A stretch of 64,000 nucleotides of DNA, from assembly GCF_054482595.1 (NCBI RefSeq), contig NZ_CM137008.1; one strand, written 5' to 3'. A program made the position numbers and the translations under genes. The notes under the pieces are model-generated. The model made no database searches, had not been told where the DNA came from, and was given only the letters and a program-made list of their open reading frames with translations. Below are positions 9,525 through 64,000 of the stretch, in pieces (within the stretch, counting starts at the first letter, position 1; the number at the start of each line of letters is the position of its first letter).

Positions 9525-9851
9525 TTATTTGTTTATAATGCGCTTACTTAATACAAACCATTGAATATACCCTCCTGACAGAAAATAAAGCCATATTATT
9601 ATCGCCATAATATACTTACTATCAATCCTTACGCCAATAATGTCTGATACAGTCCCTATAAATATTAGAGCAATAAAGAATACTATGCCTGTTGGAAAAC
9701 ATATTACCATCATTCCATAAGACATGAGACTAATTAACTCGCTCACATCACGAGTGGAGTCTAATAGTGAAAGTCTATGCATGGAAAAGAATAGTATTAA
9801 AAGCGATAAAGCCAGCCATATAGCTCTGAATAAAAAAATAATATATTTCAT
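9525..9851 (-). CDS. Putative RhsI immunity protein (small polytopic membrane protein) for the main Rhs tip
   Basis: 108-aa ORF with about three hydrophobic helices; start codon overlaps the rhs stop by 1 nt (TAATG); AT-rich. Confidence 0.6.
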   Translation of the reverse strand: MKYIIFLFRAIWLALSLLILFFSMHRLSLLDSTRDVSELISLMSYGMMVICFPTGIVFFIALIFIGTVSDIIGVRIDSKYIMAIIIWLYFLSGGYIQWFVLSKRIINK

Positions 9852-12800: not shown

Positions 12801-14035
12801 TGTTCCTTTTTCACCACCCGCTTCAGCCCGGCTTCGCCCTGCGTGTGCAGCACTTCACGGCGGTCCAGGCTGTCGGTGATGGTGATGCGGTCTTTCTCAT
12901 ACTGATACGTGTAGCTTAAGCCTGCCGGGTTTAGCTGTTCTGTCACCCGCCCGTCGCTGTCGTAACGGTAACGGATTTCCGGCCGGCCCGTGTGACGGTG
13001 CGCCACCATCCGGCCCCGGTATTTATCATCGTAAGTAAAGCTGCGCACCTGTGTATTGCTGCGGTCATACACTGCCGCCAGTTCGCCGCGCGGCGTCCAG
13101 CCATAGCGCACCAGCGGCGCGGCAGGTAAATTCTCCGGGTATTCCGGGTCGTGCGTCAGCCACACGGCAGACAGACGGATGCCGTTGTCCCGGCCATATT
13201 CGGTGTAACCCGGCAGGGTATCAGGAAAAGCGGACGGTTCCGTCCCGCCGGAAATGGCCTGCTGCCGGGCTTCTTCTGCCTGCTGCGCCTGCGTGGTCAG
13301 TACCAGCCGGAAGTGACGCCCGGCACCATCCGTCACGCCGGTGATTTCGCCGCTGAATTCACCGGCGGCTTCGCGGTGGAACGTCTGTGTGCGCCCGAAG
13401 CGGTCCACCAGCCCGGTCAGTACCCGGTACGGCGGCAGCGGCGCAGGCAGCACCTCATCCGCTTCCGGCACCCGCTCACACCACCACCACGGCCCCTGCG
13501 GACTGTTTGTCGCCAGATAACGATGCGGACTTAAGCGGAGTTCTTCCGGCAGCGCCTGCCAGAGTGCGGCCAGCCGGTGACCTTCATCCAGTTTCGCCAC
13601 GCCGCCGCGCACCAGCCACAGTGACTCGCTGCGGCTGTAACCGTCCTCACCGGGAAACAGGTGCTCAAAATACAGGCTTCTGCCGCCGTTATCACTGAGT
13701 ATCAGTGTGTTATCGCGCAGCTGTAAGCGGATATCCGCAGGCATTTTCCAGCCGGGGCCGAGGCTCCCCACCGGCGCGGGCGTTTTTGTCCGGTAACTGC
13801 TGTAGGTGCGGGAGAGGATGAACGGCAGCGGGGCGGGCAGGGCGATGTCGGTTTCACCGGGAAGGACCTTTGCACCGAGCAGGGGATTGACCGGATGGCC
13901 GGACGTCACTCCGCCGGGGCACCCCGAACAGGCCACACCGGTTGGGGCACCGATGCGCACCCCGGCTGAACCCTGAACAATGCTACCGCCATACTGCGTC
14001 ATGTCGCCCTGACGCGCCGCCGGTTTTCCGCTCAT
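9851..14035 (-). CDS. rhsA: Rhs-family polymorphic toxin with N-terminal PAAR-like domain, YD-repeat core and variable C-terminal tip
   Basis: 1394-aa ORF; N-terminus [42 protein letters not shown] (PAAR-like); many YD repeats; DPLGL hinge followed by a ~150-aa Cys-rich AT-rich tip; sits next to yibF as rhsA does in K-12. Confidence 0.9.
10330..11350 (-). repeat. Rhs 3' core repeat, copy 1 (within the main rhs gene)
   Basis: Source copy of the about 1-kb segment duplicated in the two orphan modules. Confidence 0.9.
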
Positions 14036-25099: not shown

Positions 25100-25228
25100 T
25101 GGATGTCGGTGCGGCTGGCCTACGCTCTCGCACCGACTTGTATGCCTGATAAGACGTGTTAAGCGTCGCATCAGGCAATGTGCTCCTTACGTTGGATGCG
25201 GCGCGAGTGCCTTATCCAACCTACGGAT
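25100..25228. repeat. REP/BIME element at the yiaT-proximal boundary of the GH127 module
   Basis: gcctgataagacgtgttaagcgtcgcatcaggc and ggatgcggcgcgagtgccttatccaacctacgg; the last unit overlaps the GH127 stop codon. Confidence 0.75.
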
Positions 25229-27191
25229 GGCAATGCTTTTCCTCATTCACCCAGATCCGCATTTCGCCTTCACCCCGGTTGGCCCAGCTAAACCACGGGA
25301 TAAAGGTCAGAGTTTGCGTCTGGCGTTTGGCTGGCGCGCTGTCGTAATGCCACAGCGGTTGCTGCTCTGGATTGCTCTGTTCATACCGGTAACCCGGTGC
25401 CTGGATTAAGATCTTATGGCTAAACAATCCATTGCCTTCAAATGTCGTAAATGGCGCATCGGTGGGCAGCCACAGATTATGCAGTGACTCGCCGTTGTCG
25501 GCCTGTTCCAGGCAATACACCAGCGGGCCGCGCTGAATCGCCACTTTTCCGGCGACGTGACGCACCAGCGGGTTACCGTAAACGCGACGTACTGGCATCG
25601 GCAAAGTCAGATTCAGCGTGTCGCCCTCCTGCCATTCGCGGGTAATGTGCAAATACCCTTTACGAATATCCTGCTCGACCTCTTCCCCATTCAATATGAT
25701 CTGCGGCTGTGTGCACCAGTCCGGCAGACGTAAAGCAAGTGTATGACGCACCGGCTGGGGCGATTCGACCGCAATCGTCACCTGTTCCTGCCACGGATAG
25801 TTCCCGCTAACCCGCAGGCGCAGCGTGCCATTTTCTACCGGCACTTCCATGCTGTTTCCTGCGTATATGTTGATATACAACGCATCTTCTCGCGGCGTGT
25901 AGAGATAATGACCAATCGAGGTCAGCACGCGGGCGATATTTGGCGGACAACAAGCGCAGCCAAACCAACGCTGGCGGATCGGTTTAACGTGATCGTAGAT
26001 ATGGTTGAATTTCAGCGATTTTGGATGTACTTCCAGCGGATTCACATAGAAGAAATGTTTGCCATCCAGCGCCATGCCGCCGAGCACGGTGTTGTACAGT
26101 GCGCGCTCCATCACATCGGCATATTGACTGTCGCCTTCCATTTCCAGCATTCGTCGGGCAAACATCATCAGGCCGATGGAGGCGCAACTTTCAGCGTATA
26201 CCGTGTCATTCGGCAGATCGTAATCGCTGCTGAACGCTTCACCGCTGCTCTGTGAGCCAATGCCGCCGGTAATATATAACTGACGCTGGGCCATATTGTT
26301 CCACAGCCGCAGGCAGTTCTGACGCTTGCTGTCATCGTGACTTAAACGCGCGAGATGCGCGACGCCGGTCATCAGATAGACAAAACGTACCGCGTGACCG
26401 ATGGCGGTTTGCTGTTGCGCAAGGGGCAAATGTGCCTGGCTGTAGGCTTTGTCTTTCACCATCCACGCCGGGCCGTAGGTGTGCCAGTGCGATGTCTGCC
26501 CGCGCTTTTCATATTCCTGGTCGTAATAGTGCGGTTGCGCACCACGTTGTTCGACAAAATAGTTCGTCAGTGCCAGGTAGCGCGGCTCTTCGGTCACTTC
26601 ATACAGACGCATCAGTGCCAGTTCAATTTCCGGGTGACCAGGGTAACCGTGTAACTTACTTTCATCTGGACCAAACACGCTGTCGATATGATCGGCCAGA
26701 CGGCAAACCACTTCCAGCAAGCGCCGCTTGCCCGTGGCCTGGAAGAAGGCGACTCCAGCTTCAATCAGATGACCTGCGCAGTAAAGTTCATGACACTCCG
26801 CCAGATTGCTCCAGCGTTCTTCGGGTGCTTTTACCGTAAAGTAAGTATTGAGATAGCCGTCTTCGCATTGGGCGGAGGCGATCAGTTCGATTACCTCGTC
26901 GGCGGTTTTTTCCAGTTCGGCGTCTGGCTTCTGGCACAGCGACCAGGCTACCGCTTCCAGCCATTTGGCGACATCGCTGTCCTGAAACACCATCCCGTAA
27001 AATTCACCCTCCTGAAGTCCGGCGGCAATGCGAAAGTTTTCAATCGCATGGCTGGGTTCCGCTTCTGGTATACGATCGTTCAAGGCATCCCACTGATAAG
27101 GAATCACCACGTCGCGGACCAGTTGTTGGTACTGACCGAGAAACGGATCGCTGACCGTCAGTTTATGCAGATCGACTTCCGAAATGTTCAT
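25221..27191 (-). CDS. Glycoside hydrolase family 127-like protein (DUF1680; putative beta-L-arabinofuranosidase), cytoplasmic
   Basis: Start taken at MNISEVDL after SD aaggag (656 aa); contains YAESCASIG and WFGCACCPPN, matching the Glu-x-Cys and Cys-x-Cys-Cys zinc/nucleophile signature of GH127 enzymes; no signal peptide. Confidence 0.75.
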   Translation of the reverse strand: MNISEVDLHKLTVSDPFLGQYQQLVRDVVIPYQWDALNDRIPEAEPSHAIENFRIAAGLQEGEFYGMVFQDSDVAKWLEAVAWSLCQKPDAELEKTADEVIELIASAQCEDGYLNTYFTVKAPEERWSNLAECHELYCAGHLIEAGVAFFQATGKRRLLEVVCRLADHIDSVFGPDESKLHGYPGHPEIELALMRLYEVTEEPRYLALTNYFVEQRGAQPHYYDQEYEKRGQTSHWHTYGPAWMVKDKAYSQAHLPLAQQQTAIGHAVRFVYLMTGVAHLARLSHDDSKRQNCLRLWNNMAQRQLYITGGIGSQSSGEAFSSDYDLPNDTVYAESCASIGLMMFARRMLEMEGDSQYADVMERALYNTVLGGMALDGKHFFYVNPLEVHPKSLKFNHIYDHVKPIRQRWFGCACCPPNIARVLTSIGHYLYTPREDALYINIYAGNSMEVPVENGTLRLRVSGNYPWQEQVTIAVESPQPVRHTLALRLPDWCTQPQIILNGEEVEQDIRKGYLHITREWQEGDTLNLTLPMPVRRVYGNPLVRHVAGKVAIQRGPLVYCLEQADNGESLHNLWLPTDAPFTTFEGNGLFSHKILIQAPGYRYEQSNPEQQPLWHYDSAPAKRQTQTLTFIPWFSWANRGEGEMRIWVNEEKHCHP

Positions 27192-27201
27192 CTTGTGCTC
27201 C

Positions 27202-28602
27202 TTAAGGCTGTACATGACGCTGACGCAGGTCGGTAGCAATGCGTGACATCATAGGGTTATTGAGTTTGCAAAAGCGGATCGCCCCTGCCAGCAGCAGGTG
27301 GAATAGCGCAGGCAGTAATGTTTCCATCGCCGTGATCCCGCCAAGCGAACTGGTGGTCTGGTTTTCCACGCCTGGCTGGTAGGCGACAAAAATAAACAGC
27401 AGGCTGATGATCCCGGCGCTGGAGGCCCAGGCCAGCTTGATGAAAAACAGATTGAAGGCGAAGTTCATGCCGGAAGAACGTACGCGGGTTTTCCACTCGC
27501 CGTAGTCATCGGCAAAGGCCATCAATGAGAAGTGCAGTGGCAATGTGAAGCCAAGAATCACGCCATTACCGAGGATCACCGCCAGCCACAGCGTTTGATA
27601 AGCCGGGCCGGAGGGCAGGAACCACATCAACACCGCCAGTGCAGCGAGGAGCAGGTTGGTGTAGTAATAAATTTTGACGGTATCGAAACGCCGCGTTAAC
27701 GGGCTGACAATCACCGAGCCGATAATGGAGGCGAAGGTGACCATGGTGAAGAACAGCGACGTGTAGCCCGTGCTGCCTTGTAAGACGTAGGTAATGAAGT
27801 ACATATACCCACCGCCGCGAATATTAAAGACGTTAATCAGCAGGAAAGACATGACCAGCATCAGCAGCAGTTGGTCGTTGTTCCGCAGCCCGGCAAGATG
27901 TTCGCGCAGGGTAAATTTCCCCATTGTGGAGAGTGGCACCCGTTCACGAACCCAGAAAAAACAGCACAGGAACATCACCACGGCAATGGCGCACAGCACG
28001 CCGACGCCCAATTGATAGCCGCGCGCGGCATTACCCTGACCGAAGAGATCTACCATCCACGGTAAGCCTACCGAAACCAGAAATCCCGCTACGCCACAGA
28101 GAACGAATCGCCAGGACTGGCAGGAGATCACTTCATTGTGGCGGGTGGTCATGGTGTTGATCAGCGCGCAGTACGGTACGTTGATGGCGGTATAACCGAC
28201 TGAAAGGAGCAGGTAAGTACCGAACGCCCAGGCGATTTTTACTCCCATGCTGGCATCTGGCACGGTGAACGTCAGGATGCCGATAATGCCGATGGGAATG
28301 GCAATCCATAGCTGCCACGGACGAAAGCGCCCCCAGCGACTTTGCGTCCGGTCGGCAATGACGCCCATCACCGGGTCGGAGATGGCATCAAACACGCGCA
28401 GTGCAATAAACAGCGTGCCAACCAGCGCCGGAGTTAATCCAAAAACGTCGGTGTAGAAAAAGGTGAGAAAGTTCATGATCAGGCAAGTTATTACGGTGCC
28501 GCCTGCGTCACCCAGGCCGTAGCCTATTTTTTCCCGTACCGATAACGCATCGTCAATTTTACCTTTAGCGATATCAGCGGTAGTAATCGGTGTAGAGGTC
28601 AT
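27202..28602 (-). CDS. GPH-family glycoside/pentoside/hexuronide:cation symporter (MelB-like)
   Basis: 466-aa polytopic [38 protein letters not shown]...[13 protein letters not shown] (GPH signature region); SD gagga; stop lies 10 nt before the GH127 start, so operon-like. Confidence 0.8.
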
Positions 28603-28740
28603 AGATATTCCTCGTGAATAGGGAGCAATTTTTAGTTTTATTGAAATGACCTGATTAATTCTGCCGTGAACGGGAATATCAACAAGGCGAGAAAAGAGTA
28701 AAAAAAGGTGACGATTCCGACCTGAATTTAAAAGTGTGAA

Positions 28741-29643
28741 ATGGATCAGGTGAAATTAATGTTTTTTATTAATAATCAAAAGGTAATGTGTTTTGTCATT
28801 AATGAAGAAGCGGGAAATTACATATCAATGCTCGAATTATCCATGACGTTACCGATTAAAGTGCAAAATGGTGGATTATTTATTTCCCGTGGCGTAGGGA
28901 GGCATCCTGCAAGGCGGCTGGAGTCATGGGAAATTATCTTTGTCGAAAAAGGTCGATTAACGATTCAGGAAGAAGAACGGATATTTCTGGTCGATGCGGG
29001 AGAGAGTTTATTACTCTGGCCGAACCGACAACATGTTGGGGTGGAGGATTTTCCCGCCGATCTCAAATTTTACTGGCTGCATTTTGAGGTTAAAGCGCCG
29101 GACAACGACCCTCGCTGGCTTACTCATCTTAGCGTGCCGCAACAAACGAAGGTTGTCGATCCGCAGGCGCTGGTGGCCCTGTTTCGCCAGTTCTTAAGCG
29201 AACAGGAAAAGCATCAACGCACTCCGGCGCTGGAGTTTATTGTGCTGCTCATTTTGCAGCAGCTCACCCGTGACGCGCGTCTTGATGAACAGGCCGATGG
29301 CGCAGGCACCACCCTTGCCTGGAAAGCGCAGAAACTGATCCGCACGCAATATCATCGCCCGCTTTCTACGGTGCTTCTGGCCCGCGAGCTGTACTGCAAT
29401 GCCGATTATCTTGGGCGCGTCTACCGGCGGGTGTTTCATCTGACGTTAACAGAAGCAATCCATCGCCAGCGGGTGCGCGAAGCCGAAAAGCTGTTAATTA
29501 GCGAAGCGCGATCGCTCACGGAAGTGGCGGCGTTGTGCGGGTTTAATGACGTTGGCTATTTCCGGCAGATTTTTCGCAAACACACCGGTTTAACGCCAGC
29601 AGCGTGGAAGCGGCGTTACAGCAAGGAACATATCAATTCGTAG
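28741..29643 (+). CDS. AraC/XylS-family transcriptional regulator (N-terminal cupin-like sensing domain, C-terminal HTH)
   Basis: 300-aa ORF divergent from the transporter gene; C-terminal region with the typical AraC HTH; start codon uncertain (ATG 28741 or a downstream Met near 28819). Confidence 0.75.
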
Positions 29644-29886
29644 TGCCGTGTCGATTTCGCTTTCGACATCACGTCTGAAACAGGTGGGGGAGAAAAATCT
29701 CCTGAAACCACTGCGTGAAACCGCGCAGGCTATTTCTAATGAACTGGGATTTACTGTCAGGGATGACCTTGGCGCGATCACATAACGCTTTGGACAAGTG
29801 CCAAAACTTTAACATTTCCTTCGTTGGATCAAAGCAGTAGGGACGTGCTCTCTGGCACTCTGCTGTTTTAGTGCAAAGGAGTGATC

Positions 29887-51579: not shown

Positions 51580-52554
51580 TTAGTCCGCGACGTGCGGATT
51601 CACACAGTTCTTCTCAACCTTTCCTAGTAACGCATCAATCAAATTATCCACGGCACAGGCGGCCATGCCATAACGCGTCTCATGGGTGGCAGATCCAATA
51701 TGCGGTACTGCGACGACGTTGGCCATTGAGAGCAACGGCGAATCTACGGAAAGTGGCTCTTGTTCGAAGACATCCAGCCCGGCGGCGTGAATTTCGCCTT
51801 TCTGCAATGCAGCAATCAGTGCATTTTCATCAACCACCGGGCCACGTCCGGCATTAATGAATATGGCGGAGGATTTCATTTTGGCGAATTGTTCTGCGCC
51901 AAATAGATGATACGTCTCATCAGTTAACGGCAGGATCAGGCAAACGAAATCTGACTCTTGTAACAGTGTATCCAAATCGCAGTAGCGGGCGTTGAAGCGT
52001 TCTTCTGCTTCTTTATGGTGGCGGCGCGCGTTATAGAGGATGGGCATGTTGAAGCCAAAGTGCGCACGTTGTGCCAGCGCCATACCGATCCGTCCCATCC
52101 CGACAATGCCCAGTGTTTTATGGTGAACGTCAGTGCCGTACCAGTCCGGGCCTATGCTCGCGGTCCATTCGCCTGCTTTTACCCGTTCTGCTACCTCCAC
52201 AACCCGACGAGCGGTAGACAACATCAGCGCCATCAGCGTATCGGCGACGGTTTCTGTTAATACGGTTGGCGTGTGCATGAGCAGAATTTTTCGGGCGGTA
52301 AGCGCATCGACATCAAAATTGTCATAGCCGACGGAGATCGTTGATGTGGCACGCAGTTTCGGCATTTTTTCCAGCAATGCGGCATCTACATTCTCGTTTG
52401 AACCCAGTAAACCTTCAGCTTCTGCAAAAATTGCTGCATTTTGATCGACGGTTTGTGGGCTGAGGTTTGCCACCTGGTGAACGGTGAAATGCTCTTGCAG
52501 GCGTTGCAGTAAATCATCAGGTAAGGCTTTGTAGAGGATAACGGACGGCTTCAT
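51580..52554 (-). CDS. ghrB: Glyoxylate/hydroxypyruvate reductase B (2-ketoaldonate reductase)
   Basis: Start at [25 protein letters not shown] (324 aa); D-isomer 2-hydroxyacid dehydrogenase family with NAD-binding GxGxxG. Confidence 0.93.
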
Positions 52555-52657
52555 GCTTCTCTCCATTCACTGATAAGGCGATCACCTTAGCCTGAAATAT
52601 GATGAAGGAAAACTGAAGAATGCCAGGTGATTTCTGCATCACCTGGCATGAAAGGGA

Positions 52658-53317
52658 TTACAGCGGGCTTAAGGTAATTTCTACACGGCGGTTTTGCGCC
52701 TTACCTTCTGCGGTGCTGTTGCTGGCGATTGGGTTAGCCGGGCCAAGGCCCTGAGTACGGATGCGGCTGGCGTCCACGCCCTGGGTGATCAACGCGCTGG
52801 CAACGGAATCCGCACGCTGCTGGGAGAGACGCATGTTCAGATCGTGACCACCCGTGCTGTCGGTATAACCAATCACGTTAACCGCCGTTTTCGGATACTC
52901 TTTCAGCACCATTGCCACGCCGGTCAGGGTGTTAGCGCCCGCAGGTTTCAGGGTCGCGCTGCTGCTGTCGAAGGTCACATTGTTCGGCATATTGAGGATA
53001 ATGTTATCCCCGCTGCGGGTTACGCTAACACCAGTGCCGCGCATTTTGTCACGCAGCTTCGCTTCCTGCACATCCATGTAATAACCCACGCCGCCGCCCA
53101 GAGCTGCGCCTGCTGCTGCGCCAATCAGCGCGCCTTTACCGCGATCTTTCTTAGAAGAAGAGAGCGCTCCAATACCCGCGCCCACGAGAGAGCCCAGACC
53201 TGCGCCGATAGCAGATTTACCTGCTTCGCGTTCGCCGGTGTAAGGGTTAGTTGTGCAGCCAGATACCGCCAGAGCGCCACTCACTACGGCGGCAATAAGA
53301 TAAACACGTTTCTTCAT
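52658..53317 (-). CDS. yiaD: OmpA-domain outer-membrane lipoprotein
   Basis: 219-aa ORF with lipobox (ALAVSGCTTN), glycine-zipper region and C-terminal OmpA peptidoglycan-binding domain. Confidence 0.9.
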   Translation of the reverse strand: MKKRVYLIAAVVSGALAVSGCTTNPYTGEREAGKSAIGAGLGSLVGAGIGALSSSKKDRGKGALIGAAAGAALGGGVGYYMDVQEAKLRDKMRGTGVSVTRSGDNIILNMPNNVTFDSSSATLKPAGANTLTGVAMVLKEYPKTAVNVIGYTDSTGGHDLNMRLSQQRADSVASALITQGVDASRIRTQGLGPANPIASNSTAEGKAQNRRVEITLSPL

Positions 53318-53469
53318 TGTTAATCCTTAATAACCTTTTTATTCTTTGCCACGGGTTCCGTGGCGGGAGATTATGCCGCGTGAACATGAAGATTATTCCT
53401 GGGAATACTCGGAAATTTGTAAGTAATATTTAACTGCTCAATACATCTAACCTTTCAGGAGTCTTCGGT

Positions 53470-55803
53470 TTGGCCAACTCATCCTCACGATATTCCGTTC
53501 TGACTGCCGCCCATTGGGGGCCCATGCTGGTTGAAACCGACGGCGAAACCGTGTTTAGCTCGCGTGGCGCGTTAGCCACAGGAATGGAAAACTCCTTGCA
53601 GAGCGCGGTTCGCGACCAGGTTCACAGCAATACGCGGGTACGATTTCCAATGGTGCGCAAAGGCTTTCTCGCGTCACCGGAAAACCCGCAAGGCATTCGT
53701 GGGCAGGATGAATTTGTTCGCGTGAGTTGGGATGAGGCGCTGGATCTTATTCACCAACAACATAAACGCATTCGTGAGGCTTATGGTCCGGCATCGATTT
53801 TTGCTGGTTCCTACGGCTGGCGTTCAAACGGCGTGCTGCATAAGGCCTCGACATTATTACAACGCTATATGGCGCTGGCAGGCGGTTATACCGGGCATCT
53901 GGGGGATTATTCGACCGGTGCGGCACAGGCGATCATGCCGTATGTCGTGGGTGGCAGCGAAGTTTATCAACAGCAAACCAGTTGGCCGCTGGTGCTGGAA
54001 CATAGCGATGTCGTGGTGCTGTGGAGTGCTAACCCACTCAATACGCTGAAAATTGCGTGGAATGCATCTGATGAGCAGGGGCTTTCTTACTTTTCCGCAC
54101 TGCGTGACAGCGGGAAAAAGCTGATCTGCATTGATCCAATGCGATCGGAAACCGTCGATTTCTTTGGCGATAAAATGGAGTGGGTGGCACCGCACATGGG
54201 CACCGATGTTGCGCTGATGCTGGGGATCGCCCATACGTTGGTGGAAAATGGTTGGCACGACGAAGCGTTTCTGGCGCGTTGCACCACCGGTTATGCCGTC
54301 TTCGCCTCTTATTTGCTGGGCGAGAGTGACGGAATAGCGAAAAACGCCGAATGGGCGGCAGAGATTTGTGGTGTTGGCGCAGCGAAAATCCGCGAGCTGG
54401 CGGCTATTTTCCACCAAAATACCACCATGCTGATGGCAGGCTGGGGAATGCAGCGCCAACAGTTTGGTGAGCAAAAACACTGGATGATCGTCACGCTGGC
54501 AGCAATGTTGGGGCAAATCGGCACACCCGGCGGCGGTTTTGGTCTTTCTTATCATTTTGCCAATGGTGGTAACCCCACGCGGCGTTCTGCGGTGCTCTCT
54601 TCCATGCAGGGCAGCTTGCCGGGTGGCTGCGATGCGGTGGATAAAATCCCTGTTGCCCGCATTGTTGAAGCACTGGAAAACCCTGGTGGCGCATATCAAC
54701 ACAACGGTATGAACCGACATTTCCCGGATATTCGTTTTATCTGGTGGGCGGGCGGTGCCAACTTTACTCATCATCAGGATACCAATCGCCTGATCCGTGC
54801 CTGGCAAAAACCGGAGCTGGTGGTGATCTCTGAATGCTTCTGGACGGCGGCGGCAAAACACGCGGATATCGTTCTGCCTGCGACTACCTCTTTTGAGCGT
54901 AATGATCTCACCATGACCGGTGATTACAGTAATCAGCATCTGGTGCCGATGAAGCAAGTGGTGCCGCCACGCTATGAAGCGCGTAATGATTTTGATGTTT
55001 TTGCCGAGTTAAGTGAACGCTGGGAGAAGGGCGGTTATGCACGTTTTACGGAAGGAAAAAGTGAGCTGCAATGGCTGGAAACGTTTTATAACGTTGCCCG
55101 ACAGCGCGGGGCAAACCAGCAGGTTGAATTGCCGCCATTTGCTGAGTTCTGGCAAGCCAATCAGTTAATTGAGATGCCGGAAAACCCGGACAGCGAGCGG
55201 TTTATTCGCTTCGCTGATTTTTGCCGCGATCCGCAGGCGCATCCATTAAAAACCGCCAGCGGTAAGATTGAAATCTTCTCGCAGCGTATTGCCGATTACG
55301 CTTATCCGGATTGCCCGGGGCATCCAATGTGGCTGGTGCCGGACGAATGGCAGGGCAATGCCGAACCGGAACAGTTACAGGTACTTTCTGCTCATCCGGC
55401 GCATCGTCTGCACAGCCAGCTGAATTACAGTTCTCTGCGCGAATTGTACGCGGTGGCAAACCGTGAGCCTGTCACCATTCATCCTGACGATGCCCAGGCG
55501 CGCGGCATACAAGATGGCGATACTGTTCGGCTGTGGAACTCACGCGGGCAAATTCTTGCCGGAGCGGTCATTAGCGAGGGAATTAAACCTGGCGTGATTT
55601 GCATTCACGAAGGGGCATGGCCGGATCTGGATTTAACCGCTGACGGTATTTGTAAAAACGGCGCAGTGAACGTGCTGACCAAAGATCTCCCCAGCTCGCG
55701 GCTGGGGAATGGCTGTGCGGGTAATACGGCGCTGGCATGGCTAGAAAAATACAACGGTCCGGAACTGACACTTACAGCGTTTGAACCACCGGCCAGCTCA
55801 TAA
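53470..55803 (+). CDS. bisC: Biotin sulfoxide reductase (molybdopterin oxidoreductase)
   Basis: 777-aa ORF; the track start at 53470 is a TTG codon preceded by SD aggag; DMSO-reductase-family domains. Confidence 0.9.
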
Positions 55804-56212
55804 TCCAGGTGGGTAGTTGGGTTTCATCCTGCCATGCGCAATCGACAATGTGAAAACCCTGCGCCTGGTAAAAATCTATCGCCGGTTGATTTTTTTGATA
55901 AACCTCCAGCATCAGATGGGGATGGCGCTGTTGCACATACTGCATCAGCGCCTTACCAATACCGCGCCTGACGGCCTTCGGTGCGACAAACATCGCTGCC
56001 AGAAATCGGCCTTCCATAATGCTGACAAAACCAAGAAGCTTACTGTCTTCTTCCCAGACCCAGTTTTGTGCGTTGGCAAGATAGGCATCCCGCACCAGCG
56101 GAATGCACTCGCGCCAGTAATTCGCTTTTATAAAGGGATGGCCCCAGGTTGTACTTTCCAGCCACAGTTCGAGGATCGCGGGGAGTTCTGAACGTTGCGC
56201 TTCCCTAATCAT
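55772..56212 (-). CDS. yiaC: GNAT-family N-acetyltransferase
   Basis: 146-aa ORF; start overlaps the tag stop (ATGA); 3' end overlaps the bisC 3' end by 32 nt, convergent. Confidence 0.88.
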
Positions 56213-56772
56213 GGTTTATTTCCCGGATAGCAACAGCAGCCAACCACATGATCATTCACCAGCCCACATGCCTGCATAAAGGAGTAACAGATTGTGGTAC
56301 CGACAAACTTAAAACCACGTTTTTTCAGTGCCTTAGATAGGGCGTCGGAGGCGGGCGTAGATGTGGGGATTTCGCTCAACGTTGTGGCTTGTGTCACCTG
56401 TGGCTGATGATTTACAAACGACCAGACAAAGTCGGCAAACGGTTCGCCGTTCTGTTCCATTTGCAGGTACGCCCGCGCATTACCAATAATTGCCTGAATT
56501 TTCCCGCGATGGCGGATAATCCCGGCGTCCTGTACCAGTCTTTCGACATCCTCTTCCTGCATTGCGGCAACCTTCACCGGATCGAACTGATGAAAGCAGG
56601 CGCGATAGTTTTCGCGTTTTTTGAGGACGGTGATCCACGATAACCCAGCCTGCTGCCCTTCCAGGCAGATCATTTCGAACAGTTTTTTACTGTCAGTTTC
56701 AGGCACGCCCCACTCATTATCATGGTAGGCAATATAAAGCGGGTCCTGACTCACCCAGCCGCAACGTTCCAT
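56209..56772 (-). CDS. tag: DNA-3-methyladenine glycosylase I
   Basis: Start at MERCGWVSQDPLYIAYHDNEWGVP (187 aa); the ORF-track N-terminal extension to 57009 is rejected. Confidence 0.93.
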   Translation of the reverse strand: MERCGWVSQDPLYIAYHDNEWGVPETDSKKLFEMICLEGQQAGLSWITVLKKRENYRACFHQFDPVKVAAMQEEDVERLVQDAGIIRHRGKIQAIIGNARAYLQMEQNGEPFADFVWSFVNHQPQVTQATTLSEIPTSTPASDALSKALKKRGFKFVGTTICYSFMQACGLVNDHVVGCCCYPGNKP

Positions 56773-56929
56773 ACTTTCCCTCGCTATGTACCCGATCGTA
56801 AAAATTTCAGCCGCTTTTCTTGACGCATCGGTGAAAAAGTCAATATTTAATACAGGGCTACTATGCCCGATATCCTTCATACAATGACAATAATATTGCC
56901 GAATTCGGCTCTTCCCTGGAGTCGTGTTA

Positions 56930-57628
56930 ATGATCATAAAAAAAAGCGGTGGTCGCTGGCAGCTAAGCCTGCTGGCGAGTGTGGTAATCAGTGCCTTTTT
57001 TCTCAACACAGCTTACGCCTGGCAACAAGAATATATCGTTGATACGCAACCCGGGCATTCCACAGAGCGTTACACCTGGGATAGTGATCATCAACCTGAT
57101 TACAACGATATTTTGTCGCAACGTATTCAAAGTAGCCAAAGGGCGCTGGGACTGGAAGTCAATCTGGCGGAAGAAACCCCTGTGGATGTGACCAGCAGTA
57201 TGAGTATGGGCTGGAATTTTCCTTTATATGAACAGGTTACAACTGGCCCGGTCGCGGCATTACATTACGATGGCACAACCACCTCGATGTATAACGAGTT
57301 TGGCGACAGTACTACCACTCTGACCGATCCGTTATGGCATGCCAGCGTGAGTACCTTAGGCTGGCGTGTTGACTCCCGGCTTGGCGATCTCCGACCCTGG
57401 GCGCAAATCAGCTATAACCAGCAATTTGGCGAGAATATCTGGAAGGCGCAATCAGGCCTGAGCCGGATGACGGCGACAAACCAGAACGGCAACTGGCTGG
57501 ATGTCACCGTAGGCGCTGATATGTTGCTCAATCAAAATATTGCCGCCTATGCCGCGCTATCTCAGGCAGAAAATACCACTAACAATAGCGATTATCTGTA
57601 TACGATGGGGGTTAGTGCCAGATTTTAA
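56930..57628 (+). CDS. yhjY: Outer-membrane autotransporter-like beta-domain protein
   Basis: 232-aa ORF from ATG 56930 after SD ctggag; signal-like N-terminus; C-terminal aromatic residue (…VSARF). Confidence 0.85.
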   Translation: MIIKKSGGRWQLSLLASVVISAFFLNTAYAWQQEYIVDTQPGHSTERYTWDSDHQPDYNDILSQRIQSSQRALGLEVNLAEETPVDVTSSMSMGWNFPLYEQVTTGPVAALHYDGTTTSMYNEFGDSTTTLTDPLWHASVSTLGWRVDSRLGDLRPWAQISYNQQFGENIWKAQSGLSRMTATNQNGNWLDVTVGADMLLNQNIAAYAALSQAENTTNNSDYLYTMGVSARF

Positions 57629-57730
57629 CGTAACAATCACAATTAAAACCATTGAATAACAATAGTTGTGGCGATAGTGGGTGCTAACTTACCAAATAAT
57701 AAATTTGGTGAATAATTGTCGCGTCATTCA

Positions 57731-57761
57731 TTCCTGAACTAAGGCATTTCATTCCGTTCTG
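57731..57761 (+). promoter_or_regulatory. yhjX promoter direct repeats (LytTR-type response-regulator site, YpdB/BtsR-like)
   Basis: Two perfect copies of ggcatttcat (57731-57740 and 57752-57761) separated by 11 bp, about 100 bp upstream of the yhjX ATG. Confidence 0.65.
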
Positions 57762-57856
57762 ATGGCATTTCATGCCGTTTTTCCCCAGGCATAAAGTGCA
57801 CTTCGTTATGGTTGTCGGCAGAGATTTTTCCTTTTTATTACTGCAGGAATACTGCC

Positions 57857-59059
57857 ATGACACCTTCAAATTATCAGCGTACCCGCTGGTTGACACTCAT
57901 CGGTACTATCATTACCCAGTTTGCGCTGGGGTCGGTTTATACCTGGAGCCTGTTTAACGGCGCGCTTTCCGCCAAGCTGGATGCGCCGGTAAGCCAGGTC
58001 GCTTTCTCTTTCGGCTTGTTAAGTCTGGGGCTGGCAATATCGTCTTCTGTTGCGGGCAAATTGCAGGAACGTTTTGGTGTTAAACGCGTCACCATCGCTT
58101 CCGGCATTTTGCTGGGATTAGGGTTCTTCCTGACAGCGCATTCTGACAACCTGATGATGCTGTGGTTAAGCGCCGGTGTGCTGGTCGGTCTGGCGGATGG
58201 CGCGGGTTACCTGCTGACGCTCTCTAACTGCGTGAAATGGTTCCCGGAGCGTAAAGGTCTGATCTCCGCGTTCGCTATCGGTTCTTATGGTCTGGGTAGC
58301 CTGGGTTTCAAATTTATCGACACGCAGCTGCTGGAAACGGTCGGTCTGGAAAAAACCTTTGTGATTTGGGGAGCGATTGCGCTGGTGATGATTGTTTTCG
58401 GCGCAACATTAATGAAAGACGCACCAAAACAGGAAGTGAAAACCAGCAATGGCGTAGTGGAGAAAGATTACACGCTGGCAGAGTCGATGCGTAAACCGCA
58501 GTACTGGATGTTAGCGGTAATGTTCCTGACTGCCTGCATGAGCGGCCTGTATGTGATTGGGGTAGCGAAAGATATCGCCCAAAGTCTGGCACACCTTGAT
58601 GTGGTTTCCGCAGCCAATGCAGTCACTGTTATTTCCATCGCCAACCTTTCAGGTCGTCTGGTGCTGGGCATTCTGTCTGACAAAATCGCCCGTATCCGTG
58701 TTATCACCATTGGTCAGGTAATTTCGCTTGTGGGTATGGCGGCCCTGCTGTTTGCACCATTGAATGCAGTGACGTTCTTTGCAGCGATTGCCTGCGTGGC
58801 ATTTAACTTTGGCGGCACTATTACCGTCTTTCCGTCACTGGTCAGTGAGTTCTTCGGCCTCAATAACCTGGCGAAAAACTACGGTGTGATTTACCTCGGT
58901 TTCGGTATCGGTAGCATTTGTGGTTCGATTATCGCCTCACTGTTTGGCGGCTTCTATGTGACGTTCTACGTCATCTTTGCTCTGCTGATTCTGTCATTGG
59001 CGCTTTCTACGACGATTCGTCAGCCAGAGCAGAAAGTATTGCGTGAGGCGCATATTTAG
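57857..59059 (+). CDS. yhjX: MFS transporter (oxalate/formate antiporter-like; pyruvate-inducible)
   Basis: Start at MTPSNYQRTRWLTLIGTIITQFALGSVYTWSLF; 12-TM MFS. Confidence 0.92.
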   Translation: MTPSNYQRTRWLTLIGTIITQFALGSVYTWSLFNGALSAKLDAPVSQVAFSFGLLSLGLAISSSVAGKLQERFGVKRVTIASGILLGLGFFLTAHSDNLMMLWLSAGVLVGLADGAGYLLTLSNCVKWFPERKGLISAFAIGSYGLGSLGFKFIDTQLLETVGLEKTFVIWGAIALVMIVFGATLMKDAPKQEVKTSNGVVEKDYTLAESMRKPQYWMLAVMFLTACMSGLYVIGVAKDIAQSLAHLDVVSAANAVTVISIANLSGRLVLGILSDKIARIRVITIGQVISLVGMAALLFAPLNAVTFFAAIACVAFNFGGTITVFPSLVSEFFGLNNLAKNYGVIYLGFGIGSICGSIIASLFGGFYVTFYVIFALLILSLALSTTIRQPEQKVLREAHI

Positions 59060-59083
59060 CCAGGAACTACAGATTTTGAACGA

Positions 59084-59110
59084 AAGGGGGAGGAAATCCT
59101 CCTTTTTTAT
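59084..59110 (+). terminator. Rho-independent terminator of yhjX
   Basis: ggggaggaaatcctcc hairpin followed by ttttttatt. Confidence 0.75.
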
Positions 59111-59403
59111 TGCATTTTAAAGAATAAAAATGAAAATATTTTATCTTATTATTTGTGTGGTGAATGTTTTTGTTTTGTTTAATTGATATTTTATATTTAT
59201 TTATTCCTAAAAATAAACGATGGCTTTTTATGTGAAAATGTAACGCAATGATTTTTTTTAAGATTTAAAGTTGGATGCGCTATTAATATATTATTCGTAT
59301 AATTTTATTATTCGTATTTCATTGTATAATCCTTCCTTCAAAGTTGTCGATTTTGATACATCAAGATTTTCTTTTTAATGTAATTTTTTAAATGGAGTTT
59401 TTC

Positions 59404-59928
59404 ATGAAAAAGGTCGTTTTTGCCTTAACCGCACTGGCGTTAACTTCTGGCACTGTATTCGCAGCAGAGTCTGGTGACGGCACGGTTAAATTTACAGGCG
59501 AGATCGTGGATTCACCTTGCGTACTGTCCGTTGACTCTCAGAACCAGGAAGTTGTGTTGGGTCAGGTACAAAAATCTGTATTTGCTGCGGTTGGTGACAA
59601 ATCCCCGGCAAAACCTTTCGAAATCAAACTGGAAGATTGCGATACCACCACGATGAAAAAAGCCAATGTGAGCTTTAGCGGTGTTGGTGATGCAGATCAA
59701 TCTGATCTGATTTCTGTTAGTACTGAAGCCGGTGCGGCGAAAGGTGTTGGTATCGGTATTTATGATAACAGCAACACCCTGGTCGCTCTTAACGGTGGTA
59801 AAGCAAGTGTTGATCTGAGTAAAGGCCAGACGGTTCTCTACTTTACCGCCAACTACGTTTCAACTCTGGCAACGGTAACGACCGGTTACGGCAATGCGCA
59901 GGTCGATTTCAACCTGTCTTACGAGTAA
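59404..59928 (+). CDS. lpfA: Fimbrial major subunit, long-polar-fimbriae type
   Basis: Start at MKKVVFALTALALTSGTVFAAESGDGTVKFTGEIVDSPCVL after SD ggag; type 1 pilin domain with C-terminal ...VDFNLSYE; preceded by a very AT-rich promoter region. Confidence 0.85.
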   Translation: MKKVVFALTALALTSGTVFAAESGDGTVKFTGEIVDSPCVLSVDSQNQEVVLGQVQKSVFAAVGDKSPAKPFEIKLEDCDTTTMKKANVSFSGVGDADQSDLISVSTEAGAAKGVGIGIYDNSNTLVALNGGKASVDLSKGQTVLYFTANYVSTLATVTTGYGNAQVDFNLSYE

Positions 59929-59980
59929 TCGTCTGTTTTACCCATGGCGGCGTAATTGCCGCCATTAGTCGTCAAAATTC

Positions 59981-60679
59981 ATGGATCGAATGATGAAAAG
60001 TAAATTTGTTGCGTTGGCTCTGTCTCTGTTCCTCTCCCAGTCAGTTCTGGCGGGGGGCGTTGGGCTTAGTGCTACCCGTGTGATTTATGATGGCAGTAAG
60101 AAAGAAGCCTCGCTGACCGTACAGAATAAAAGTAAGACGGAAGAGTTTCTGATCCAGTCCTGGGTGGATGATGCCGCGGGCAGCAAAAAAACACCGTTTA
60201 TAATTACCCCGCCGTTGTTCAGGCTCGATCCTGGAAAAAACAATATATTGCGTATTGTAAATACTACCCCTGGCCTGCCGCAGGATCGCGAATCGGTCTA
60301 CTGGGTTAATGTGAAAGCCATTCCGTCTAAAAGTGACGACAGCGAAAACAAAAATGTATTACAGATTGCTGTTCGCACCCGAATCAAACTTTTTTATCGC
60401 CCGGCAGGTTTAAAGGGTGATGTAAAAACCGCGCCAAATGAACTGCGATTTACGCGTAACGGTAATCAGCTCCGCGTTGATAATCCGACAGTTTTTAATA
60501 TTACCTTTAATCAATTTTTTGCGAATGACAAAGAAATTGAAAAAGCAGGCATGGTACCCGCTAAAGGGGCATTAAATATCACATTACCCGCCGGGGTAGG
60601 TAGCGTTTCTAAAATTAAATATAACGCCATCAATGACTTTGGATCGTCAGCGGAAATGATGACTAAAAATGTTGATTGA
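59981..60679 (+). CDS. lpfB: Periplasmic fimbrial chaperone (PapD-like)
   Basis: 232-aa ORF with signal peptide; chaperone motifs (LSATRVIYDG..., NPTPYY-like region); start may be at 59990 or 59993. Confidence 0.85.
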   Translation: MDRMMKSKFVALALSLFLSQSVLAGGVGLSATRVIYDGSKKEASLTVQNKSKTEEFLIQSWVDDAAGSKKTPFIITPPLFRLDPGKNNILRIVNTTPGLPQDRESVYWVNVKAIPSKSDDSENKNVLQIAVRTRIKLFYRPAGLKGDVKTAPNELRFTRNGNQLRVDNPTVFNITFNQFFANDKEIEKAGMVPAKGALNITLPAGVGSVSKIKYNAINDFGSSAEMMTKNVD

Positions 60680-60707
60680 TTAATATCTTTTCAGGAGAAA
60701 TAGCTCA

Positions 60708-63281
60708 ATGTCACGGAAGACCGTTTCACGTACTTTTTCTTCCTTTTCTATCTCTGTGGTGGCGGTTGCTGTTGCCAGCACGTTTTCTGCACATGCCGGA
60801 AAGTTTAACCCCAAATTCCTGGAGGACGTTCAGGGTGTGGGCCAGCATGTCGATTTAACGATGTTCGAAAAAGGCCAAGAACAGCAGTTACCCGGCATCT
60901 ATCGTGTCTCTGTTTACGTCAATGAACAGAGAATGGAAACCCGCACACTGGAATTTAAAGAGGCCACAGAAGCACAGCGCAAAGCGATGGGGGAATCCCT
61001 TGTGCCTTGCCTTAGCCGGACGCAACTGGCAGAGATGGGCGTGCGCGTTGAAAGCTTTCCGGCCCTCAATCTGGTGCCTGCCGAAGCCTGCGTACCGTTT
61101 GACGAAATCATTCCCCTGGCCTCAAGCCATTTCGACTTCAGTGAACAAAAGCTGGTATTAAGTTTCCCTCAGGCGGCGATGCACCAGGTGGCGCGTGGCA
61201 CGGTGCCGGAATCTTTATGGGACGAAGGTATCCCTGCGTTGCTGCTGGATTACAGTTTTAGCGGGAGCAACAGTGAATATGACTCGACGGGGTCTTCCAG
61301 CAGTTATGTCGATGATAATGGCACTGTTCATCATGATGATGGTAAAGATACGCTAAAGAGCGACAGCTACTACCTCAACTTACGCAGCGGGCTGAACCTT
61401 GGCGCTTGGCGGTTACGGAATTACAGTACCTGGAGCCATTCCGGTGGCAAAGCGCAGTGGGATAATATCGGTACGTCTTTGAGTAGGGCCATCATCCCTT
61501 TCAAAGCGCAATTAACAATGGGGGATACGGCGACCGCGGGGGATATTTTTGACAGCGTTCAGATGCGTGGCGCGATGTTAGCCTCCGATGAAGAGATGCT
61601 GCCCGACAGCCAGCGAGGCTTTGCACCCATCGTTCGTGGGATCGCCAAAAGTAACGCCGAAGTCAGTGTTGAACAAAACGGCTACGTTATTTATCGCACC
61701 TATGTGCAGCCTGGTGCCTTTGAAATAAACGATCTTTACCCCACTGCAAACAGCGGTGATCTCACGGTCATTATTAAAGAAGCGGATGGCAGTGAACAAC
61801 GCTTTATTCAGCCATTCTCATCGGTGCCAATTTTCCAGCGTGAAGGCCATCTCAAATATAGCTTTGCCGCAGGTGAATATCAGGCCGGGAATTATGACAG
61901 CGGCTCGCCGCGTTTCGGGCAGCTTGATCTGATTTATGGTTTACCGTGGGGGACGACCGCCTACGGCGGCGCATTAATCTCCAATAATTACAATGCGTTT
62001 GCATTAGGGATAGGTAAAAACTTTGGTTATATCGGGGCGATTTCCATCGATGTGACACAGGCGAAAAGCGAGCTGAATAACGATCGCGATAGCCAGGGAC
62101 AATCTTATCGCTTCTTATATTCCAAGAGCTTCGAAAGCGGCACCGATTTCCGCCTCGCGGGCTATCGATACTCTACCAGCGGTTTCTATACCTTCCAGGA
62201 AGCCACCGATGTTCGCAATGATGCCGACAGCGACTATAACCGTTATCACAAGCGCAGCGAAATACAGGGTAACCTGACGCAGCAATTAGGGTCATATGGC
62301 TCTGTTTATTTAAATTTAACGCAGCAGGATTACTGGAACGACGCAGGTAAACAGAACACGGTATCGGCGGGTTACAACGGACGTATTGGCAAGGTCAGTT
62401 ACAGTATTGCATATAGCTGGAATAAAAGCCCTGAATGGGATGAAAGCGATCGCTTGTGGTCTTTCAATATTTCCGTTCCACTAGGCCGGGCCTGGAGTAA
62501 CTATCGCGTCACGACCGACCAGGATGGTCGTACCAATCAACAGGTTGGGGTCAGCGGAACGCTGCTTGAGGATCGCAACCTGAGCTACAGTGTCCAGGAA
62601 GGCTACGCCAGCAACGGTGTGGGTAACAGCGGTAATGCTAACGTTGGCTATCAGGGTGGGTCCGGTAATGTCAACGTAGGCTATAGCTACGGGAAAGATT
62701 ACCGGCAGCTCAACTACAGCGTTCGCGGCGGCGTGATAGTTCATAGCGAAGGCGTGACGCTTTCCCAACCGCTAGGCGAAACCATGACGCTCATCTCCGT
62801 ACCCGGTGCGCGCAATGCCCGCGTGGTGAATAACGGCGGCGTTCAGGTTGACTGGATGGGTAACGCGATCGTGCCTTACGCCATGCCGTATCGTGAAAAC
62901 GAAATCTCACTGCGTAGCGATTCGTTGGGTGACGATGTTGACGTTGAAAATGCGTTCCAGAAAGTGGTGCCAACGCGTGGAGCGATTGTCAGAGCGCGTT
63001 TTGATACCCGCGTTGGTTACCGCGTATTAATGACGCTGCTTCGTTCCGCGGGCAGCCCGGTGCCCTTTGGAGCAACGGCAACGCTAATCACCGATAAACA
63101 AAACGAGATGAGCAGTATCGTTGGTGAAGAAGGACAGCTCTATATTAGCGGAATGCCAGAGGAAGGACGGGTATTGATTAAATGGGGTAATGACGCGTCG
63201 CAGCAATGCGTGGCGCCTTATAAATTATCCCTGGAATTAAAACAGGGCGGAATTATTCCTGTTTCGGCCAATTGCCAGTAA
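60708..63281 (+). CDS. lpfC: Outer-membrane fimbrial usher, intact
   Basis: 857-aa ORF with SD aggag; usher N-terminal, barrel and C-terminal domains in a single uninterrupted frame. Confidence 0.88.
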   Translation: MSRKTVSRTFSSFSISVVAVAVASTFSAHAGKFNPKFLEDVQGVGQHVDLTMFEKGQEQQLPGIYRVSVYVNEQRMETRTLEFKEATEAQRKAMGESLVPCLSRTQLAEMGVRVESFPALNLVPAEACVPFDEIIPLASSHFDFSEQKLVLSFPQAAMHQVARGTVPESLWDEGIPALLLDYSFSGSNSEYDSTGSSSSYVDDNGTVHHDDGKDTLKSDSYYLNLRSGLNLGAWRLRNYSTWSHSGGKAQWDNIGTSLSRAIIPFKAQLTMGDTATAGDIFDSVQMRGAMLASDEEMLPDSQRGFAPIVRGIAKSNAEVSVEQNGYVIYRTYVQPGAFEINDLYPTANSGDLTVIIKEADGSEQRFIQPFSSVPIFQREGHLKYSFAAGEYQAGNYDSGSPRFGQLDLIYGLPWGTTAYGGALISNNYNAFALGIGKNFGYIGAISIDVTQAKSELNNDRDSQGQSYRFLYSKSFESGTDFRLAGYRYSTSGFYTFQEATDVRNDADSDYNRYHKRSEIQGNLTQQLGSYGSVYLNLTQQDYWNDAGKQNTVSAGYNGRIGKVSYSIAYSWNKSPEWDESDRLWSFNISVPLGRAWSNYRVTTDQDGRTNQQVGVSGTLLEDRNLSYSVQEGYASNGVGNSGNANVGYQGGSGNVNVGYSYGKDYRQLNYSVRGGVIVHSEGVTLSQPLGETMTLISVPGARNARVVNNGGVQVDWMGNAIVPYAMPYRENEISLRSDSLGDDVDVENAFQKVVPTRGAIVRARFDTRVGYRVLMTLLRSAGSPVPFGATATLITDKQNEMSSIVGEEGQLYISGMPEEGRVLIKWGNDASQQCVAPYKLSLELKQGGIIPVSANCQ

Positions 63282-63295
63282 GCAAGGAGAGCGAA

Positions 63296-64000
63296 ATGAA
63301 AGCGGCAATAGCATTATCCTTATTAGGATGCGTATTCGGATTTTCTGGCAAGGCATTTGCCGGAGATGCGTGGGGGCCATGTACCCCCGCGGATGGCACG
63401 ACTTATCACTATAATGTCGATGTGGATGTTGGTATACCTGATGCGGCAAAAAACGTCGCAGGAACGGTTTTACCGGATGTCCTTAACTGGTCTAATGGAC
63501 AAAACGTATCGCTAATTTGTGAATGTCCTGATTCTTATAAGAATGAAAAAGATACTCTAGTACAAGGGGTGAGTATGCTTCCCCCTTCTGGCCGTTCGGT
63601 TGACAGTATGAAATATTATACTTTGACGGAGGAACTGGAGGTTGCGACGAAAATTCGCATCAGTACCAGTGTGTATGGATTTGTTCCTTTCAAAAACCAG
63701 CAGGCGCTGCAAACAACCGGATGCAACAAAGTCATTACTACGCCCTATATGGGCGGCGCAGGTCTACTTTCCTTTGCTATTACTAAACCCTTTATCGGCG
63801 ATTCAGTCATCCCTCCCACGTTAATTGCCGAACTGTATGCCTCCAAAACAAATAAAGATTACGGAACAATGCCAATATCTTCCGTATCTATTCAGGGCCG
63901 CGTCACCATAACCCAGGATTGCGAAATTAAACCTGGCACGGTGCTGGATGTGCCATTTGGTGAATTCCCCTCCTCGGCATTCAAAAACAGGCAAGGGCAA
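63296..64000 (+). CDS. lpfD: Fimbrial minor subunit / putative adhesin, 5' portion (continues beyond window end)
   Basis: Open frame from ATG 63296 to the window end with no stop: MKAAIALSLLGCVFGFSGKAFAGDAWGPCTPADG...; SD aaggaga. Confidence 0.75.
   Translation, partial: MKAAIALSLLGCVFGFSGKAFAGDAWGPCTPADGTTYHYNVDVDVGIPDAAKNVAGTVLPDVLNWSNGQNVSLICECPDSYKNEKDTLVQGVSMLPPSGRSVDSMKYYTLTEELEVATKIRISTSVYGFVPFKNQQALQTTGCNKVITTPYMGGAGLLSFAITKPFIGDSVIPPTLIAELYASKTNKDYGTMPISSVSIQGRVTITQDCEIKPGTVLDVPFGEFPSSAFKNRQGQ

Follow-up and report, generated by a model that had tools for sequence, protein, structure and literature searches.

An lpf1-type chaperone-usher operon with an uninterrupted usher gene and a hairpin after the pilin gene at the yhjX–eptB site of Escherichia coli

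The founding member of the long polar fimbriae (lpf) family is the lpfABCDE operon of Salmonella enterica, and a described relative of the locus analyzed here is the lpf1 operon of Escherichia coli O157:H7 strains EDL933 and Sakai (lpfABCC'DE, O-island 141). The operon, its chromosomal site, its alleles and the usher defect of O157:H7 are already documented. In O157:H7, lpf1 is reported to be under the control of H-NS and Ler (PMC5357955), and papBA and cfaAB provide a precedent for pilin-gene hairpins combined with differential mRNA decay (PMC5927463). Here, we analyzed the region downstream of yhjX in a stretch of 64,000 nucleotides from contig NZ_CM137008.1 (assembly GCF_054482595.1; hereafter the window), in which a first-pass annotation had proposed an lpf-like operon. 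Positions 59060–64000 (4,941 bases, all features on the plus strand) almost certainly represent the promoter-proximal 4.9 kb of an E. coli lpf1 operon of the O-island-141 type, that is, a type-1-like chaperone-usher operon located at the yhjX–eptB site and carrying an O157:H7-like allele that lacks the nonsense codon. RefSeq annotates this operon in the near-identical strain XH990, and our analysis adds a count of the usher defect by genome, the presence of the primer-typed lpfA1-3 allele outside O157:H7 and O55:H7, and a quantified conservation of the hairpin after lpfA together with the loss of its T-run in Escherichia.

Gene content, family assignment and the usher gene

Analysis of open reading frames and Pfam domains recovered a major pilin gene, a PapD-like chaperone gene, a gene for an 857-residue usher and the start of an adhesin gene behind yhjX, each at the place where the first-pass annotation had put it. 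The major fimbrial subunit (174 amino acids) is encoded by lpfA1 (59404–59928; Pfam Fimbrial, E 1.9e-30; NCBIfam LpfA), whose start was placed at 59404, and not at the ATG at 59392, because of a GGAG motif at 59394–59397. The periplasmic PapD-like chaperone (228 amino acids; Pfam PapD_N and PapD_C, NCBIfam LpfB) is encoded by lpfB at 59993–60679 if the RefSeq start is followed, and a longer open reading frame (59981–60679) begins at an in-frame ATG at 59981. The lpfC gene (60708–63281; Pfam PapC_N, Usher and PapC_C, NCBIfam LpfC) codes for an outer-membrane usher of 857 amino acids with no internal stop, and lpfD, the frame of which is open to the window end, contributes 235 of its 351 codons (63296–64000), corresponding to the receptor-binding domain of a two-domain tip adhesin. 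The spacers are 64 bp between lpfA and lpfB, 28 bp between lpfB and lpfC, and 14 bp between lpfC and lpfD.

E. coli XH990 (NZ_CP019359.1, 187060–192000) and ten other complete genomes matched this piece with a single mismatch, and two additional genomes were nearly as close as those eleven; the closest genomes had been isolated from urine, poultry, pig and duck. Over the 61 kb that were compared overall, the window was identical to XH990 at positions 1–49000 and differed in 52060–64000 only at position 62636 (T in the window, C in XH990). This base ends lpfC codon 643, and the change is synonymous (AAT/AAC, Asn). As each of the eleven best-matching genomes scored exactly one mismatch, the source genome is a very close relative absent from the collection searched. 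The RefSeq annotation of XH990 lists yhjX, lpfA1, lpfB, lpfC, a fimbrial protein of 351 amino acids, lpfE (176 amino acids), eptB and tRNA-Pro (proK), all of them intact. The remainder of lpfD, lpfE and eptB, which the first-pass annotation had expected beyond the window, is thus present in a genome one base away from it and free of frameshifts, and the order lpfABCDE is completed by the rest of lpfD and by lpfE in XH990. Hence, lpfD and lpfE are presumably complete in the source genome as well.

The family assignment was examined using NCBIfam equivalog models, whose cut-offs were passed by LpfA (340 bits versus a cut-off of 221), LpfB (438 versus 360), LpfC (1713 versus 1271) and LpfE (291 versus 169). 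The usher aligned with nearly all of its Pfam models (PapC_N 1–145 of 146, Usher 1–549 of 549, PapC_C 1–65 of 66), and its closest solved chain was FimD (E 6e-226, aligned over residues 33–857), while those of LpfB were FimC (E 2e-48) and SfaE. A Fimbrial pilin domain was found in LpfA, in LpfE and in LpfD (residues 198–349 of the full-length XH990 protein). The full-length XH990 LpfD aligned end to end with PDB 5AFO (E 1.5e-66), a chain deposited as 'FIMBRIAE', which we take to be the LpfD adhesin of the adherent-invasive E. coli LF82. A Pfam search of the adhesin part present in the window gave no lectin-domain match. The score of LpfD against its own NCBIfam model was 330 bits, under the cut-off of 412, and it is for this reason that RefSeq gives the lpfD product the generic name 'fimbrial protein'; even so, NCBIfam LpfD was the best family by far, the next one reaching 103 bits. 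We consider that this score reflects divergence of the adhesin and not membership of another family. The idea that the operon belongs to some other type-1-like family, for instance fim, bcf or sti, with lpf as a mere label, draws on the sub-cut-off LpfD score and on FimA, FimC and FimD being the closest solved or next-best families, but it is hardly credible, since the LpfA, LpfB, LpfC and LpfE equivalogs pass widely, every Fim, Bcf and Sti model fails its cut-off, the operon shares 97.8% DNA identity with lpf1 of O157:H7, and the gene order and site are those of lpf1. A different fimbrial family was thus tested and refuted by the equivalog scores, and the proposed lpf identity was borne out.

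The first-pass annotation had also contrasted the unbroken usher of the window with the broken one of O157:H7, and a codon comparison traced this difference to codon 368 of lpfC (61809–61811), which is CAG (Gln) in the window and TAG in O157:H7, where RefSeq flags lpfC as a pseudogene owing to an internal stop. A 65-mer containing the TAG codon was found as an exact match in 299 of 5426 complete genomes, and the corresponding CAG 65-mer of the window in 100 of the same 5426; among the matches listed, all eight carriers of the TAG 65-mer were O157:H7 or unlabelled strains. The lpfC gene was intact in O55:H7 DEC5A, in O145, and in three isolates of this type, two of them human and one from a pig (the non-O157 alleles examined besides O55:H7 being those of O145, Res13, 2018-05-2CC and EC974), and also in the B2-type operon and in two divergent operons (~70–71%). 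Moreover, all five lpf genes were open in every non-O157:H7 genome examined. On the sequences compared, the intact usher is the ancestral and common state, to which the O157:H7 lineage is the exception, and the nonsense codon is, judging from the TAG 65-mer count and the intact O55:H7 gene, confined to that lineage. Accordingly, the intact usher in the window is not notable in itself, because it is the normal state outside O157:H7, although work on Lpf1 assembly is perhaps better suited to an intact-usher strain such as that of the window.

Allele type, distribution and chromosomal site

The allele was typed by in silico PCR with published lpfA1-3 primers (PMC3417533). Both primers matched exactly, at 59589 and 59814, with the expected amplicon of 244 bp, and the LpfA protein differed from O157:H7 LpfA1 by one residue (Q99K), so that the allele typing suggested in the first-pass annotation led to lpfA1-3, the nearest allele being that of O157:H7 and O55:H7. 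The same primers also matched O55:H7 and the urinary isolate EC974, while the reverse primer had four mismatches in the allele shared by O145, Res13, 2018-05-2CC and TR01. Since the primer-typed allele occurs in genomes of urinary, poultry, pig and duck origin that are neither O157:H7 nor O55:H7, the lpfA1-3 marker is not strictly lineage-specific. Strain TR01, although labelled O157:H7, has an intact lpfC and an O145-type LpfA (WP_000758168.1), unlike other O157:H7 genomes, and it represents either an atypical lineage, a recombinant or a labelling issue.

The relationship of the window to other alleles changes along the operon. Positions 59654–60253, which span the end of lpfA and the first half of lpfB, showed no difference to EC974 and 38 differences to O157:H7, whereas positions 63554–63853, within the receptor-binding part of lpfD, showed nine differences to O157:H7 and O55:H7 and 86–89 per 300 bp to the other alleles. 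As read from these comparisons, the operon is a recombinant mosaic, and LpfD exists in two sharply distinct forms inside a single operon type.

The distribution of the operon was surveyed with an lpfAB query in 5,426 complete E. coli genomes. In a sensitive search, 1,355 genomes gave a match, of which 500, the same ones as in a less sensitive search, covered at least 80% of the query; the lpf1 type described here was present at >90% identity in 422 genomes and the B2-type operon at about 75–78% identity in 78. A further 855 genomes matched at 60–80% identity over <80% of lpfAB, and 27 rows sampled from them comprised 18 operons of the lpfA1-2 type (~71%; O104:H4, O111, O103 and others), two of a further type (~70%) and five 73-bp matches to unrelated fimbrial chaperone genes. 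In the genomes examined, the B2-type, lpfA1-2-type and further-type operons were located at the same site. A scan of the genome collection with LpfB yielded mostly unrelated fimbrial chaperones (35–48% identity), and only three of the loci found were lpf; the orthologues from Salmonella, Citrobacter and others were retrieved by protein search and from their contigs.

The operon is flanked by yhjX and eptB (yhjW). Comparison with MG1655, together with the XH990 annotation, agreed with the earlier placement of lpf at this site and with its absence from K-12: MG1655 is without the operon, and its yhjX–eptB gap measures 323 bp. Homology to K-12 ends at window position 59053, six bases before the yhjX stop, and resumes 183 bp before eptB, so that K-12 has 152 bp in place of a segment of 5,904 bp. 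Given this breakpoint at 59053/59054, the last codons of yhjX (57857–59059; an MFS transporter according to the XH990 RefSeq annotation and Pfam MFS_1) and the yhjX terminator are part of the segment linked to lpf. Of the 152 bp in K-12, the right-hand third has a counterpart (98.8% match) immediately behind lpfE in the O104:H4 operon, which is of the lpfA1-2 type. Furthermore, lpfA is immediately preceded by a yhjX orthologue (89–98% protein identity) in Citrobacter werkmanii, Enterobacter hormaechei and Escherichia sp. E2748, and because yhjX adjoins lpfA in other genera, the yhjX–lpf linkage appears to predate E. coli; the gene found upstream of lpfA in Enterobacter sp. kpr-6 is eptB instead. 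Taken together, the 98.8% match of the filler DNA and the yhjX–lpfA linkage elsewhere suggest that the lpf locus is old and that K-12 lost the operon by deletion.

Two further loci were noticed at a distance from the operon, both in coordinates taken from the XH990 annotation. At ~25221–29785, between yiaT and ysaA, where K-12 presumably carries the yiaJ–yiaK...sgbE cluster, there are genes for a GH127 glycoside hydrolase, an MFS transporter and a regulator of the AraC family, together with a partial gene for an IclR-family regulator. At ~5174–14035, there is an Rhs cluster comprising rhsC, rhsB in truncated form, a fragment of an RHS core, an immunity gene (Imm57) and yibA, a pseudogene interrupted by a stop codon.

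The hairpin after lpfA and the upstream region

A stem-loop directly after lpfA had been noted in the first-pass annotation, and its presence stood up to analysis, while its start had to be moved from 59942 to 59944. The hairpin (59944–59965; ATGGCGGCG-TAAT-TGCCGCCAT) has nine pairs and a folding energy of -16.1 kcal/mol (z = -3.8), and one of 200 shuffled sequences folded equally well. We compared it across 12 variants of the lpfA–lpfB spacer, counted as five genera: five E. coli allele types, one near-identical metagenome bin, E. albertii, Escherichia sp. E2748, two Enterobacter, Citrobacter werkmanii and Salmonella. The hairpin was found at the same place in all 12, with an unchanged stem base (TGGC...GCCA), while the upper stem varied and yet remained complementary (GGCG, AGUGA, AGCA, AACA, AACGG), and the loop ranged in length from 3 to 7. 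In the alignment of the 12 variants, 99% of stem cells showed standard pairing, and changes on both sides had occurred at five of the nine pairs, in 17 cells. Of 500 column shuffles, none equalled the alignment in its pairing, its covariation score or its tally of compensated cells, and the number of pairs changed on both sides was matched by 11 of 500. When the 3' arm was slid by one or two columns, pairing fell to ~30%, and a slide of three gave 60–68%. RNAalifold, run on the first eight variants, predicted the same helix. These data are good evidence that the hairpin is a selected and conserved RNA structure. One might instead regard the palindrome as an element acting at the DNA level, such as one bound by a dimeric regulator or one prone to recombination, as the invariant TGGC...GCCA pairs would befit a sequence-specific site; this is very improbable, however, because the upper stem changes freely in sequence with complementarity kept and the loop varies between 3 and 7, which is the mark of a structure and not of a fixed recognition sequence.

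What follows the stem differs among the variants. A TTTTTT run comes after the stem in Salmonella, Citrobacter werkmanii and Enterobacter hormaechei, which is the canonical form of an intrinsic terminator, whereas Enterobacter kpr-6 and all Escherichia variants have either no T-run or a broken one. In the window, a G+C-rich stem-loop is present and the T/U run behind it is missing; TAGTCGTCAAAA comes directly after the stem, with TAGTCGTC where the T-run stands elsewhere. By the precedent of papBA and cfaAB, it is plausible that the hairpin sets the ratio of major to minor subunits, and, judging from the family, it would raise the lpfA message relative to that of lpfBCDE. Because there is no U-tract, a 3'-exonuclease barrier or a weak attenuator is likelier in Escherichia than a canonical intrinsic terminator. 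That the hairpin works as a Rho-independent attenuator, stopping part of the transcripts and not stabilizing their 3' ends, seems to us rather unlikely: the same stem does carry a T6 run in Salmonella, Citrobacter werkmanii and Enterobacter hormaechei, but the window stem runs into TAGTCGTCAAAA, all Escherichia variants are without a clear T-run, and a terminator scan of the window region did not call the hairpin at 59944–59965. A more speculative proposal, which we judge unlikely, is that the hairpin began as an intrinsic terminator, and that Escherichia lost the U-tract and kept the stem by compensatory substitutions, thereby converting an attenuator into a barrier to mRNA decay. If this were true, the ratio of pilin to assembly-gene message would be set differently, and the operon would offer a small case of terminator-to-stabilizer conversion inside an operon. 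In either event, the conserved hairpin is a reasonable target for a simple RNA-stability study.

As the first-pass annotation had described, the pilin gene is preceded by a yhjX terminator (59083–59108; a hairpin followed by T6, called by the terminator scan, with an RNA fold of -13.5 kcal/mol) and by about 290 bp of very AT-rich DNA, which we delimited to 295 bp (59109–59403) with a G+C content of 20.7%, compared with 50.2% for the whole window. An AT-rich promoter region of this kind is what would be expected of a horizontally variable locus silenced by H-NS, and the 344-bp yhjX–lpfA spacer is 97.1% identical to that of O157:H7, for which H-NS binding and derepression in an hns mutant are reported (cited in PMC5357955); 59109–59403 is presumed, by analogy, to contain both the promoter and the target of H-NS. 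Upstream alignment pointed to TTGTATAAT (59322–59330) as a candidate -10 element, which is kept even in the otherwise divergent upstream region of EC974. The same alignment revealed a poly-T tract (59252–59259) whose length is T8 in the window, Res13 and 2018-05-2CC, T7 in O157:H7, and T6 in O55:H7 and O145; such differences could alter promoter geometry. An 11-bp direct repeat (ATTATTCGTAT) occurs at 59290–59300 and 59307–59317, its first copy overlapping a TATAAT at 59298–59303; of the six further upstream regions of this lpf1 type that were compared, five retain it (one base off in 2018-05-2CC), EC974 being the one that does not. The best promoter-like match lies on the minus strand (59350–59321; TCGACA-18-TACAAT, 10 of 12 positions) and points from lpfA towards yhjX; it is probably a by-product of AT-richness, as the count of promoter-like sites was below the shuffle expectation. 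No GATC site is present in the upstream region, which makes a pap-like switch based on Dam methylation unlikely. No recombinase gene adjoins the operon (fim-like inverted repeats were not searched for), and an Rfam scan of 57000–64000 at E up to 1 gave no known RNA family.

The state of the upstream region bears on a further explanation, namely that the operon is intact but cryptic: H-NS would silence the promoter, and the lineage, which is apparently not attaching-effacing and may be without Ler, would make the fimbriae rarely or never, in which case an intact usher would not imply a functional operon. The G+C content of 20.7% upstream of lpfA and the 97% identity to the O157:H7 region, reported as H-NS-controlled (PMC5357955), speak in its favor, as does the origin of the closest genomes from urine, poultry, pig and duck and not from enterohemorrhagic E. 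coli. On the other hand, the openness of all five genes in every non-O157:H7 genome examined argues for continued selection, and Lpf1 contributes to adhesion in O104:H4, which is negative for the locus of enterocyte effacement, albeit with a different lpf1 allele (PMC4636846). We therefore hold the cryptic state to be possible though doubtful.

Proposed function and comparison with known systems

For an lpf1 operon that is expressed, the family suggests the following course of events. Transcription would start within the 295-bp AT-rich region, which H-NS probably silences, as in O157:H7. The subunits would be exported by Sec, capped in the periplasm by LpfB and polymerized by donor-strand exchange at the LpfC pore, with LpfD at the tip, LpfA forming the shaft and LpfE as a minor subunit.

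Several points weigh against the reading of the region as a functional lpf1 operon. The lpfD gene runs off the window, so the completeness of lpfD and lpfE is taken from genomes that differ by one base; LpfD scores below its NCBIfam cut-off; and the stem after lpfA lacks a U-tract, so that a simple terminator model does not fit it. In addition, a promoter scan found four promoter-like sites, compared with 8.0 in shuffled sequence, and cannot place the promoter. Finally, the term functional operon, as used in the first-pass annotation, is best read as a suggestion, the operon being known here from its sequence. The assignment to lpf1 nonetheless remains, in our view, almost certain, and the comparison with described systems places it as follows.

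There is a likeness to papBA and cfaAB, in which a stable hairpin flanks the major pilin cistron and is expected to raise the pilin message over that of the assembly genes (PMC5927463); the likeness is one of mechanism and not of sequence. Type 1 fimbriae (fimAICDFGH) resemble the locus in that FimD and FimC are the nearest solved usher and chaperone and that both systems have a two-domain tip adhesin, but they are encoded by another operon, which has the fimB/fimE invertible switch, whereas no recombinase gene lies beside lpf (again with inverted repeats left outside the search). The lpfABCDE operon of Salmonella enterica agrees with the window type in the order of its five genes and also has the conserved hairpin behind lpfA. 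The proteins of the Salmonella contig examined are 76% (LpfA), 67% (LpfB), 70% (LpfC), 40% (LpfD) and 53% (LpfE) identical to those of the window type, and the operon differs in the T-run behind its hairpin, in its strongly diverged adhesin and, in that contig, in its upstream neighbor.

The other comparisons are with operons of E. coli itself. The lpfA1-2-type lpf1 of O104:H4, O26, O111 and O103 shares the site and the gene order, but shows only ~71% DNA identity over lpfAB, with LpfA 73% and LpfD 38% identical; it is present in many of 933 genomes matching at 60–80% identity, a band that also holds the B2 type and weak matches to fimbrial chaperone genes. The B2-type lpf of CUVET20-PYO2, which we take to represent the lpf type of LF82, occupies the yhjX–eptB site with the same architecture, but differs at ~75% DNA identity, with LpfA 89%, LpfD ~51% and LpfE ~57% identical. 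Lpf1 of O157:H7 EDL933 and Sakai differs in the TAG at lpfC codon 368, in a 5' half of lpfB of another allelic type and in a T7 tract where the window has T8, and the host lineage of the window is not O157:H7; in site and gene order it is the same, and with DNA identity of 97.8% over 4.9 kb, LpfD identity of 97.7% and upstream identity of 97.1%, it is very much alike.

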